Origin: a phage | Strand: one strand, 5' to 3' | Sequence record: PZ338878.1 | Length of the DNA: 64,000 nucleotides | In this document: positions 15,093 to 16,141 of the stretch, piece after piece | Layout: each line of letters starts with the position of its first letter | How positions within the stretch are numbered: position 1 is the stretch's first letter | The notes under the pieces: model-generated | The model's database searches: none | Seen by the model: the letters and a program-made list of their open reading frames with translations, nothing else | Told to the model about the DNA's origin: nothing | Position numbers and translations under genes: made by a program

Positions 15093-15203
15093 ATGTCTAC
15101 AGAAATTATTTTTGGCTTATCTGTTTTTATTGCTATTGTATCTTTTGTATGCGGTTATACACTAGGTTACAGATCAAGAAAAAATATTGTAAAAACTAGT
15201 TGA
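15093..15203 (+). CDS. small single-pass membrane peptide (36 aa, below ORF-track cutoff)
   Basis: AAGGA RBS then ATG; MSTEIIFGLSVFIAIVSFVCGYTLGY hydrophobic core. Confidence 0.25.
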   Translation: MSTEIIFGLSVFIAIVSFVCGYTLGYRSRKNIVKTS

Positions 15204-15229
15204 CAACATAGCTAGTTATTTGCTAAGAT
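15200..15229 (+). promoter_or_regulatory. sigma70-type promoter (TTGACA, 18 nt, TAAGAT)
   Basis: Perfect -35 and 5/6 -10, upstream of ORF 15260 and the tRNA array. Confidence 0.45.
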
Positions 15230-15259: not shown

Positions 15260-15526
15260 ATGACAGAACGTACTTATGGTAAAGAATTGATTGAGAAGCA
15301 CGTATTGATTGATAATAAAGGTGGAGCAATCTTTATTTTTGAACCTGAATCAGTTCTTACTGAAAACGAAAATGGTAGCGTTAGCCTTAAAACAGAAAGT
15401 TTGGTAATTGACTTCCTTGCTCTTCTGGATGAAATGGGGCTTCCGCACGAAGAAGAAGCAGCTATTGCTTTGATTACAGTTCTTCTGGAGAAACGCGAAG
15501 CTGGTGAAATGACCCAGTATGCTTAA
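15260..15526 (+). CDS. hypothetical protein (88 aa)
   Basis: ORF with AAAGGAG RBS. Confidence 0.45.
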   Translation: MTERTYGKELIEKHVLIDNKGGAIFIFEPESVLTENENGSVSLKTESLVIDFLALLDEMGLPHEEEAAIALITVLLEKREAGEMTQYA

Positions 15527-15533
15527 TATTCAA

Positions 15534-15609
15534 GGTTCCATAGCTCACTGACGAGAGCGCACACCTCATAAGTGTCGAGGGCAGGGATTGTAACCCTGGG
15601 GAACCACCA
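15534..15609 (+). tRNA. tRNA-Met (anticodon CAT; Ile2 or initiator not excluded)
   Basis: 76 nt; acceptor GGTTCCA/GGGAACC (one 7:66 mismatch); anticodon loop CTCATAA; non-canonical T-loop ATTGTAA; CCA encoded. Confidence 0.5.
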
Positions 15610-15640
15610 TTTAAAAGGAGATGCTATGCATCTCCTATAT

Positions 15641-15726
15641 GCAAGTGTGGTGGAATTGGTGATACACATTGTGCTTAAAACGCAACGCTTAAATGATTGA
15701 GGGTTCGAATCCCTCCACTTGCACCA
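15641..15726 (+). tRNA. tRNA-Leu (anticodon TAA)
   Basis: 86 nt class II; acceptor GCAAGTG/CACTTGC; anticodon loop CTTAAAA; long variable arm; T-arm GAGGG-TTCGAAT-CCCTC; A73; CCA encoded. Confidence 0.7.
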
Positions 15727-15728
15727 AC

Positions 15729-15834
15729 GCCTAGTAGGGTATTTGGTAATTCCGAGGCCATCAAAGCCTGAAAAATATGTTAGACCGCTTTGTCTAACTA
15801 AATACGAAATATGGTTCGATTCCATAACTAGGCT
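15729..15834 (+). ncRNA. tRNA-like element, 106 nt, non-canonical (possible stable small RNA, pseudo-tRNA or suppressor-like)
   Basis: Perfect 7-bp acceptor pairing GCCTAGT/ACTAGGC and canonical T-arm TATGG-TTCGATT-CCATA, but a 40-nt internal region with a 7-bp hairpin (15779-15798); candidate anticodon loop CATCAAA; no CCA encoded. Confidence 0.3.
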
Positions 15835-15866
15835 TCAATTTAAATAATAATTTTAGTAAAAATATC

Positions 15867-15895
15867 TTGACATTCACTTAGTTTTTTGTTATAGT
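15867..15895 (+). promoter_or_regulatory. sigma70-type promoter inside the tRNA array (TTGACA, 17 nt, TGt-TATAGT)
   Basis: Perfect -35 plus TG-extended -10, about 12 nt upstream of the next tRNA-like gene. Confidence 0.5.
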
Positions 15896-15906
15896 TACTG
15901 TGAAAA

Positions 15907-15988
15907 CGGGGTGTATCTCACCTGACTTCTAATCAGGCGTTAACCGAGTAATTGGAGTATGCAGGTTCGAATCCTGTCACCCCGACCA
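15907..15988 (+). tRNA. tRNA-Arg (anticodon TCT)-like, non-canonical D region
   Basis: 82 nt; acceptor CGGGGTG/CACCCCG; canonical anticodon arm CCTGA-CTTCTAA-TCAGG; T-arm GCAGG-TTCGAAT-CCTGT; CCA encoded; only 5 nt where the D-arm should be and a 23-nt region before the T-arm. Confidence 0.45.
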
Positions 15989-16051: not shown

Positions 16052-16141
16052 GGAAGGTAGGGCGCAGCGGTGCGCAACCAGGTTTGAACCCTGGCCCATT
16101 GTAGCGATACGGTGATGGTTCGACTCCATTATCTTCCTCCA
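16052..16141 (+). tRNA. tRNA-Ser (anticodon TGA)
   Basis: 90 nt class II; acceptor GGAAGGT/ATCTTCC; anticodon arm CCAGG-TTTGAAC-CCTGG; 19-nt variable arm; T-arm GATGG-TTCGACT-CCATT; CCA encoded. Confidence 0.7.

Follow-up and report, generated by a model that had tools for sequence, protein, structure and literature searches.

Comparative evidence for a conserved tRNA-shaped RNA gene in phage tRNA clusters

What kind of gene has the acceptor stem and T arm of a transfer RNA (tRNA) and, between them, a core that standard tRNA detectors pass over? The question is raised by a 106-nucleotide (nt) element at positions 15729-15834 of a 64,000-nt stretch of phage DNA (sequence record PZ338878.1; hereafter the window). 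Working from the letters alone, the original prediction placed directly after tRNA-Leu an element with perfect acceptor complementarity over 7 base pairs (bp), a canonical T arm and no encoded CCA. Its interior was said to hold roughly 40 extra nt, including a 7-bp hairpin, and an anticodon-like loop, CATCAAA, with anticodon TCA and A at position 33. All of these features are present as described (Table 1). Three explanations had been offered: a stable small RNA as in other phage tRNA clusters, an interrupted tRNA, or a degenerate suppressor-like tRNA. The first is the category that our comparisons best support, in that the element appears to be a conserved, structured, tRNA-shaped RNA gene within a tRNA operon. 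We describe it here as a somewhat deviant member of an undescribed family, within the broad class of irregular tRNAs and tRNA mimics.

A family of tRNA-shaped RNA genes in phages

The source of the window is a phi92-like coliphage. Two Escherichia phages, PD06 and PD114, both phi92-like myoviruses of the genus Justusliebigvirus (subfamily Stephanstirmvirinae), match the window at 100% identity over the element region; the window takes in 64 kb of a genome of ~149 kb. BLASTN searches with the element return 31 near-identical copies in Justusliebigvirus, as well as ~70%-identical copies in Erwinia phages Hena1 and pEp_SNUABM_01, the Salmonella N4-like phage UTK0002 and Klebsiella phage KPP-1. 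A search that starts from the Hena1 copy reaches 167 phage records aligned over 80% or more of its length, from Vequintavirus (rV5, FV3), Avunavirus, Mydovirus, Seunavirus and Henunavirus. The number of sequenced phage genomes with the gene is at least about 170-200, and those scored have one copy each.

A covariance model built from 11 diverse copies, hereafter R1, separates the family cleanly from ordinary tRNAs. Members score 86.5-121.8 bits, whereas the best ordinary tRNAs (Leu, Tyr, Ser, Thr) reach at most 24 bits. R1 recovers the window copy with an E-value of about 3e-20, and the minimum free energy of that copy lies at z = -2.7 relative to dinucleotide shuffles.

The fold itself is supported by covariation in an alignment of 35 distinct sequences, which was fitted to the model and so somewhat favours structure. 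Standard pairs fill 99.4% of the cells in the 20 modelled pairs, and 15 of the 20 show compensatory double changes (118 cells). None of 500 column shuffles reached the observed pairing and covariation, and sliding the 3' partners by 1-3 columns lowers pairing to 31-46%. The same helices emerge independently from 11 sequences analysed with MAFFT and RNAalifold. Covariation is seen in each of the four cloverleaf helices. In the acceptor stem, 6 of 7 pairs carry compensatory changes and 100% of cells are paired; in the D stem, the sole broken cells belong to four distinct rows from the window's genus. The anticodon-like stem covaries at 27:42 (AU/GC/GU), is invariant at 28:41 and 29:40, and closes with a fourth pair that is C:G, A:U or U:A depending on clade. 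The tertiary elbow pair 19:56 (alignment columns 18 and 98) is intact throughout, as G:C in 24 sequences and as U:A in the other 11; the 7/5 acceptor/T branch is found in 35/35 sequences. This covariation of helices and elbow argues for an L-shaped tRNA-like fold. An unrelated array of hairpins had been named as the outcome that would count against the element; the Rfam tRNA model fails on it, and the family model together with the covariation shows a true L-shaped tRNA-like fold. Taken together, the comparisons indicate that the element is a real, evolutionarily conserved tRNA-shaped RNA gene, neither a normal tRNA nor a broken one, which many phages of enteric bacteria have in their tRNA clusters.

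Pattern scans of IMG/VR and of JGI metagenomes added further clades, and since such scans are limited by their patterns, the distribution given here is a lower bound. Three related metagenome contigs, two of them of 866 kb and 369 kb, hold a member amid arrays of repeated tRNAs for Gly, Val, Arg and Met. Each of the three also has a divergent paralogue (39-40.5 bits) ~1.4-2 kb from the main copy, with loop CCUCAAA (UCA, C33) and an encoded CCA (L084 5031-5134, L061 3794-3897, L092 6189-6292). The 866-kb and 369-kb contigs gave no Pfam or PHROG matches except for one IscB-like open reading frame (ORF), and may be of either cellular or viral origin. That ORF (L084 7632-8930, + strand; 432 amino acids with RRXRR and HNH domains) adjoins the tRNA array, and within the same metagenome array ARAGORN labels as tRNA-SeC(tca) a tRNA of 73 nt whose mini-loop is GUCAA. 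Among cellular genomes, 5,426 complete E. coli genomes contain no match to the element. The species representatives of GTDB gave zero hits to a first pattern and 20 to a second, all of which fail the model, although scans of this kind can miss divergent copies. Movement between phages is also apparent: the copy in UTK0002, an N4-like podovirus, is 88.6% identical to that of the myovirus Hena1, which implies horizontal transfer between unrelated phages.

Existing tools and annotations do not recognise the family as such. ARAGORN makes no call on 15729-15834 at default or relaxed thresholds, and Rfam yields no match there, either at the gathering threshold or, for any family, at E<=10 with permissive filters. 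The tRNA model RF00005 (gathering threshold 29 bits) does not match the element and gives the neighbouring tRNAs 40-69 bits. The tRNA-Sec model RF01852 does not match it at E<=10, its sole regional match being a tRNA-Ser at 16052 (35 bits). No transfer-messenger RNA (tmRNA) is called in the window by ARAGORN, and there is no Rfam tmRNA match. In GenBank, homologues carry no label at all or are variously called tRNA-sup(tca)/TERM, tRNA-Stop(tta), tRNA-Lys, tRNA-OTHER or 'hypothetical protein'. The last is a spurious ORF of ~34 codons that some records lay over the RNA gene (window 15743-15847, + strand; L002 744-848; L035 119-220). We rejected a protein-coding reading on the ground that this frame-3 ORF is open only in the window's genus and Hena1 and contains stops in most other members examined.

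Genome papers count 6 tRNAs in rV5 (PMC3606486) and 16 in BME3 (PMC12210895), the 16 anticodons of the latter being those that ARAGORN calls in the window, and the element is mentioned in neither. We found no published description of the family in the literature on rV5, phi92, Hena1 and Vequintavirinae; it is known so far solely as inconsistent machine annotations.

Conserved core and variable surfaces

The core that had been called aberrant is, on comparison across clades, the conserved design of the family and not a product of degeneration. Constant features are A8/U14, a swap of the near-universal U8:A14; a D loop of the form UUUGG(Y)AA; G26; and an anticodon-like stem of 4 bp with G and then several A residues on its 3' side. 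To these is added an extra arm of 30-40 nt, in which a hairpin stands between single-stranded linkers of ~9-11 nt each, GAAAA… and …AAUAC-AUAG (conserved segments GAAAA and AAUACAUAG). Column entropy is 0.22-0.31 bits in the linkers, D loop and T loop, with 0.22 in both the D loop and the 3' linker, and the 3' linker is as conserved as the T loop. The D stem, at about 1.0 bits, changes with compensation. The extra-arm hairpin, at 1.40 bits, is always present, and its sequence and length are unrelated between clades. Within clades its stem covaries (for example, CCTCC/GGAGG versus CCCCC/GGGGG), and in rV5-type members it is just 4 bp long. Inspection by eye across clades revealed no consistent pairing between the two linkers or between the anticodon-like loop and the D loop.

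The anticodon-like loop is the second variable surface, and it is clade-specific. A type A loop, [Y/A]-A-U-C-A-A-[A/G], is shared by the window, Henunavirus, UTK0002 and several metagenomic lineages; 7-9 of 9 columns here are identical between lineages that are 60-72% identical overall. A type B loop, found in Mydovirus, Seunavirus and others, has a 5-bp stem whose fifth pair covaries (U:A or C:G) and a 6-nt loop, C-N-[U/G]-C-C-A. Further forms are UUUUUAA in the rV5 type, UUUAUAA in the Av05 type, UAUCGAA in another clade and CCUCAAA in the distant paralogue. The triplets at the anticodon position accordingly differ by clade: UCA, UCC/GCC, UUU, UAU and UCG. In Mydovirus-type phages, a 75-nt irregular tRNA lies directly 5' of the family member (L007, which is KPP-1, 1400-1474; L022 2598-2672; L030 5383-5457; L093 3313-3387). 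This tRNA encodes its own CCA and has a 5-bp anticodon stem closed by the 6-nt loop ACGAUA, from which ARAGORN reads a 2-base anticodon under the label tRNA-???. That 6-nt loops occur in two tRNA-like genes side by side suggests that the short loop is selected and not accidental.

The 3' end varies as well. CCA is encoded after the discriminator in 14/20 tabulated variants, and within Justusliebigvirus the trailer is TCA, as in the window, or CCC in some of its mates. The discriminator is U73 with UCA and KCC loops and A73 with UUU and UCG loops, an association that reflects very few independent events.

The window copy follows this plan (Table 1). It has the 7/5 branch, A8/U14, an anticodon-like stem of 4 bp flanked by G26 and G44, and the GAAAA and AAUAC linkers around a hairpin. 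Of these listed features, only the 3' linker departs in part: in the window's genus it leaves the consensus after AAUAC and has one additional base. The D arm of the window copy consists of a 4-bp stem, with one U-U mismatch (15740/15751) that is fixed in the genus, and an 8-nt loop, TTTGGTAA. This mismatch and the 4-bp length of the anticodon-like stem add to the features originally predicted. The anticodon-like loop is numbered C32 A33 U34 C35 A36 A37 A38, which places UCA at the anticodon and A at 33. No pairing partner was found for the 5' linker at 15770-15778.

Measured against a canonical tRNA, the window copy has the 7-bp acceptor stem, the 5-bp T stem, a T loop of the type UUCRANY, and a D arm with G18 G19 and the G19:C56 contact to the T loop. 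It lacks U8/A14 and a 5-bp anticodon stem with U33, although A37 is present. Its variable region, the 40 nt at 15770-15809 between the anticodon-like stem and the T stem, lies outside the canonical range of 4-5 nt in class I and roughly 10-24 nt in class II; the corresponding segment is ~31 nt in rV5-type members.

Table 1. Features of the tRNA-like element and its transcription unit in the window
Feature	Position	Strand	Basis
Whole tRNA-like RNA gene, 106 nt, acceptor 5' end to discriminator	15729..15834	+	R1 match with exactly these ends, 96.4 bits
Acceptor stem, 5' strand, GCCTAGT	15729..15735	+	7 perfect pairs with 15827-15833
Positions 8-9, AG; A8 in place of near-universal U8	15736..15737	+	A8/U14 invariant in both family alignments
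D arm, GGTA / TTTGGTAA / TTCC; loop with G18 G19	15738..15753	+	3/4 D-stem pairs covary
Anticodon-like arm, 4-bp stem AGGC/GCCT and 7-nt loop CATCAAA	15755..15769	+	Stem covariation/invariance; loop conservation
Extra-arm 5' linker, GAAAAATAT; single-stranded, conserved	15770..15778	+	GAAAA columns, entropy 0.31 bits
Extra-arm hairpin, GTTAGAC-CGCTTT-GTCTAAC, 7 bp and 6-nt loop	15779..15798	+	Hairpin at this position in all members
Extra-arm 3' linker, TAAATACGAAA	15799..15809	+	Entropy 0.22 bits; family consensus (A)AAUAC-AUAG
T arm, TATGG / TTCGATT / CCATA	15810..15826	+	4/5 T-stem pairs covary
Acceptor 3' strand ACTAGGC, discriminator T (15834), then TCA instead of CCA	15827..15837	+	Read from sequence
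Segment missing from VivaForever, 125 bp (element and 22 nt of spacer)	15732..15856	+	Alignment
Sigma-70-like promoter of the unit	15200..15229	+	TTGACA-18-TAAGAT, 10/12 matches, extended -10 TG
tRNA-Met(CAT) and tRNA-Leu(TAA), upstream neighbours, apparently co-transcribed	15534..15726	+	ARAGORN, Rfam
Next promoter, 3' limit of the element's transcription unit	15867..15895	+	TTGACA-17-TATAGT, 11/12 matches

Transcription unit and history in the genus

The element sits within a cluster of 16 ARAGORN-called tRNAs. It starts 2 nt downstream of tRNA-Leu(UAA) (15641-15726, CCA included) and forms the 3' end of a unit that runs from promoter through an ORF (15261-15527), tRNA-Met and tRNA-Leu to the element itself. 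A terminator scan of the region found none on the + strand between the promoter at 15200-15229 and the element. The order Met-Leu(UAA)-element is seen again in contigs L037, L075, L077 and L103, and the genes neighbouring the element are all on the + strand. We have good confidence in a conventional route to maturity. The promoter at 15200 would drive a single transcript covering tRNA-Met, tRNA-Leu and the element. RNase P would then cut at the 5' end of the element and its 3' end would be trimmed; with no CCA encoded in the window copy, the host CCA-adding enzyme would supply it. This would leave a stable RNA of about 106-109 nt. Some T4 tRNAs also have no CCA in their genes and rely on the host enzyme in this way.

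Within the genus the gene is both constrained and optional. Seven Justusliebigvirus copies have identical stems and differ at three sites only (two bases of the hairpin loop and position 32), whereas the ~30-nt spacer directly 3' of the element shows several substitutions and indels in the same seven. This contrast between invariant stems and a variable spacer points to purifying selection on the RNA. A 701-nt query, however, finds the element in only 31/51 records covered to at least 80%. In VivaForever, the one element-less record that was aligned, the junction retains only a TA microhomology and the element's first 3 nt (GCC -> ACC), which argues for a simple deletion; the other listed records with the identical 82% coverage in two pieces apparently lack the element as well, as judged from that coverage. 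That some members of the genus do without it implies that the element is dispensable. We considered insertion of a mobile element with target-site duplication, given that TAGTA flanks the segment in the window, and rejected it, as the element-less junction keeps only TA. The promoter at 15867-15895 is still present in relatives without the element.

In EmilieFrey, a well-annotated relative, the opposite strand carries genes for polynucleotide kinase, RNA ligase and a phosphoesterase at a distance of 6-8.5 kb upstream of the element, and NAD-salvage genes are found 1-3.7 kb upstream of it.

Other irregular tRNAs occur in these clusters. The promoter at 15867-15895 serves one at 15907-15985 (+ strand), which scores 40 bits with the Rfam tRNA model and has no ARAGORN call. 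Its D arm is replaced by ~4 nt, its variable region is ~24 nt long, CCA is encoded, and its anticodon arm, CCTGA-CTTCTAA-TCAGG (UCU, Arg-AGA), is canonical. It is labelled tRNA-Undet or tRNA-OTHER in PATM, cardinal and VivaForever, and is kept in the relative missing the 106-nt element. An aberrant tRNA-like sequence at ~18248-18329 (+ strand), between tRNA-Met and tRNA-Ile, combines a canonical T arm and CCA with an anticodon arm of the Trp type (TATGG-CTCCAAA-CCATA), ~10 additional nt between the acceptor strand and the D arm, and a mismatch in the acceptor stem; it scores 22.9 bits with the Rfam tRNA model (sub-threshold) and 15.4 bits with R1. Two phage-like contigs that hold a type A (UCA) family member also hold a CUA (amber-reading) tRNA with a weak anticodon stem, called 'tRNA-Pyl' by ARAGORN (L103 2791-2865, L077 7862-7934), and stop-reading irregular tRNAs may recur in tRNA clusters such as these. 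Finally, four ~146-kb 'Campylobacter phage' records (MG065639, MG065645, MG065656 and MG065689; host given as C. jejuni) are ~98% identical to the coliphage region; they probably belong to Justusliebigvirus, with the host wrongly labelled or the sequence a contaminant.

Function, rival explanations and precedents

What might such an RNA do? We tentatively favour, at a little under an even chance, the view that it is not an ordinary decoder but a tRNA mimic, acting as a decoy or inhibitor of a host tRNA-directed factor. The canonical half of the molecule (acceptor, T arm and elbow), together with the conserved core linkers, would engage a tRNA-binding partner, while the clade-specific anticodon-like loop and the hypervariable arm would provide a fast-evolving specificity surface. 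The likeliest partner would be a host tRNA-directed factor such as a defence tRNase, and the RNA would serve as an accessory, host-dependent means of counter-defence. We are led to this view because the gene is dispensable, horizontally mobile and located near tRNA-repair and NAD-salvage genes, and because tRNA-cleaving defences are abundant in E. coli (PMC13056530). Phage tRNAs are known to evade such defences through mutations in the anticodon loop (PMC10264068) and to resist P2 Old through shortened anticodon stems while still decoding (PMC12445682). A stronger version of the proposal is doubtful as a whole: that the RNA is a dedicated, host-matured phage mimic that blocks or soaks up tRNA-directed immune nucleases or toxins, with loop and arm engaged in an arms race and the linkers forming a new tertiary module.

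Several observations weigh against a mimic. Among the 105-107-nt members, the copy in the window's genus deviates most (U-U in the D stem, CCA absent, 3' linker altered; 96 bits), and this deviance could be decay. No candidate protein partner was found, and no ORF is consistently adjacent to the element. A 7-nt loop with a pyrimidine at 32 and A37/A38 fits an odd decoder better, AUCAA is strongly conserved across type A lineages, and the discriminator seems to track the loop class.

These last points lead to the strongest rival, which we consider possible but on the unlikely side: that the RNA is an irregular yet functional decoding tRNA. In this phage its role would be weak suppression of opal (UGA) codons, elsewhere in the family the scaffold would have Gly-, Lys-, Ile- or Arg-type anticodons, and the short stem and A33 would confer resistance to anticodon nucleases at a cost in efficiency. 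Canonical features are indeed present in the acceptor/T half, in the elbow and, for most clades, in an encoded CCA. Most clades also keep a 7-nt loop with Y32, A37 and A38, and A36-A37-A38 is the motif of UNN-reading tRNAs. The discriminator varies in the direction of E. coli identity rules, under which U73 is Gly-type and A73 Lys- and Arg-type. AUCAA persists despite 60-70% overall identity, UCA is one substitution from UCC or UCG, other irregular stop-reading tRNAs occur in related clusters, and GenBank pipelines have labelled homologues tRNA-sup(tca), tRNA-Lys and tRNA-Stop. In addition, rV5 lacks a canonical tRNA-Lys (PMC3606486), and phage tRNAs with shortened anticodon stems still decode (PMC12445682).

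Other features are hard to reconcile with decoding. A33, or C33 in the paralogue, removes the uridine of the U-turn; the stem is merely 4 bp, and the type B loop has 6 nt. An extra arm of 30-40 nt with sequence-conserved linkers is unprecedented among decoders. Phages with the type B (UCC-type) loop also have a canonical tRNA-Gly(UCC), which led us to reject a gap-filling decoder, and the element is dispensable in the genus.

Nor does the window show any visible benefit of suppression. Enrichment of in-frame TGA had been proposed as a check on a suppressor role, and the window holds no sign of UGA recoding. Its 58 ORFs of at least 100 amino acids (code 11) cover 84% of it and end in TAA (46), TAG (7) or TGA (5); reading through the five TGA stops extends them by merely 2-7 codons, and the sole in-frame TGA junction of two long open segments lies antisense to a 939-amino-acid gene. 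For these 64 kb of the ~149-kb genome we therefore rejected UGA recoding and programmed read-through, stop usage being ordinary, the extensions short and the junction a shadow of the 939-amino-acid gene. Of the degenerate suppressor-like tRNA first suggested, the degeneracy does not stand, the core being conserved, and the suppressor role is made less likely by the other triplets of other clades and by the lack of UGA recoding in the window; the retention of AUCAA across lineages speaks in its favour.

It is improbable that the copy in this genus is a relic, left by decay of a family member or of an old tRNA and still transcribed and cut yet functionless, or at most a processing signal that ends the tRNA-Met/Leu transcript. 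Such decay would account for the D-stem mismatch fixed in the genus, the loss of CCA, the lowest R1 score among 105-107-nt members from sequenced isolates, and the absence from VivaForever and apparently from other genus members. A relic would not be expected, however, to keep identical stems in seven genus members, with three variable sites confined to loops, beside a 30-nt spacer that varies, nor to retain the AUCAA loop and the architecture in common with lineages 60-70% identical to it. A mere RNase P handle needs neither conserved linkers nor a conserved loop.

Two further readings can be set aside. Very improbably, the conserved part is a signal at the DNA level or on the other strand, such as a minus-strand intrinsic terminator, or a short ORF: a terminator-like site does occur on the minus strand at 15798-15779, followed by ATATTTTTCA, and some GenBank records place a 34-codon 'hypothetical protein' over the element, but covariation covers the whole cloverleaf and not the hairpin alone, and the frame-3 ORF is broken in most other members examined. 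Given that every neighbouring gene is on the + strand and that other clades have a weak hairpin (4 bp in the rV5 type), the terminator-like site at 15779-15798 is probably incidental. Least credible of all is the interrupted tRNA, from which an intron or insertion would be removed to yield a normal tRNA. With introns allowed, ARAGORN does force a tRNA-Asn(gtt) with an 18-nt intron onto exactly 15729-15834, yet we rejected this reading because the 'intron' takes in the 3' strand of the covarying anticodon-like stem. The forced anticodon stem is also poor, the proposed anticodon falls in the variable-arm region, where relatives have unrelated sequences, and neither a group I intron nor any other Rfam family matches. 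At 18-40 nt the insert would also be far smaller than a bacterial self-splicing intron. The extra ~40 nt stand at the variable-arm position and are part of the conserved architecture.

The preferred reading, a tRNA mimic, can be set beside several known RNAs. The nearest precedent is T4 rnaC (species 1), which, like rnaD (species 2), is a small RNA that ends a phage tRNA cluster on the tRNA strand. The 139-nt rnaC has a canonical T arm, GGGTTCGAATCCC, with a hairpin just 5' of it after an A/U-rich stretch, and paired ends. It has no recognisable D arm, however, one long irregular hairpin replacing the D and anticodon arms; rnaD has no significant fold; and R1 matches neither at E<=10. On this comparison the resemblance is one of layout, with no homology detected by R1. 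The function of the species 1 and 2 RNAs was still unknown in 2022 (PMC9697503).

Class II tRNAs (Ser, Leu, Tyr, Sec) resemble the family in their 7/5 branch, in the GG of the D arm and in having a further stem-loop placed between the anticodon arm and the T arm. Those for Leu, Tyr and Ser are the top ordinary scorers with R1, yet they reach 19-23 bits as against 86-122 for the family, which differs from them in its 30-40-nt extra region with conserved linkers, its 4-bp anticodon stem, A33 and A8/U14. tRNA-Sec, by the Rfam consensus, has an 8/5 (13-bp) branch and a 6-bp D stem with a 4-nt loop, where the element has a 7/5 branch and a 4-bp D stem with an 8-nt loop; only UCA is shared.

A further comparison is with the allo-tRNAs and other irregular tRNAs (Mukai et al., PMC5389517), which have non-canonical cloverleaves, a long variable arm and diverse anticodons, some of them stop-reading. 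They occur in polycistronic bacterial and phage tRNA clusters and have been proposed as suppressors and/or regulatory noncoding RNAs, and U73 or G73 together with the variable arm has been discussed as identity for seryl-tRNA synthetase (PMC5389517). They differ in the branch (8/4 or 9/3, as against 7/5 in the family), in the D arm (a long stem capped by a tetraloop, as against a 4-bp stem and an 8-nt loop) and in the anticodon stem, which is longer than that of the family.

Nuclease-resistant phage tRNAs (PMC10264068; PMC12445682; PMC11555353) likewise lie in tRNA clusters, have altered anticodon loops and shortened stems (the latter in resistance to P2 OLD), and play an accessory counter-defence role. 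They are otherwise canonical, however, at 73-90 nt, and restore the decoding of one codon, whereas in the family the anticodon is not conserved, U33 is missing and a large extra domain is conserved. The Bacillus cereus 'tRNA-Other' small RNA (cited in PMC5389517) and the tRNA-like domain of bacterial Y RNAs (PMC4201824), with which no sequence relationship would be expected, also combine tRNA-like acceptor, T and D parts with handling by tRNA enzymes and regulatory or scaffolding roles. Y RNAs differ in the Ro-binding stem formed from their ends, and tRNA-Other in its ordinary tRNA size.

One consequence concerns annotation: a gene that is unannotated or inconsistently labelled in many phages can now be identified with a covariance model. 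The RNA is also relevant to tRNA engineering and to the requirements of processing enzymes, being an L-shaped scaffold found in nature that accommodates A8/U14, an anticodon stem of 4 bp, the absence of U33 and an extra domain of 40 nt. Its wider interest lies in the conflict between phage and host. Cleavage of tRNA is emerging as a major antiviral strategy of E. coli, with PrrC, PARIS, retron PtuAB, P2 Old, Schlafen and Cas12a3 among its agents, and a tRNA look-alike that is conserved and dispensable, moves horizontally and has a rapidly evolving loop and arm stands out as a candidate for a new counter-measure, or alternatively for an unusual nuclease-proof suppressor tRNA. If it is a counter-defence mimic, it would be the first non-decoding tRNA decoy described in phages, and might help to explain the T4 species 1 and 2 RNAs, a puzzle for 50 years.

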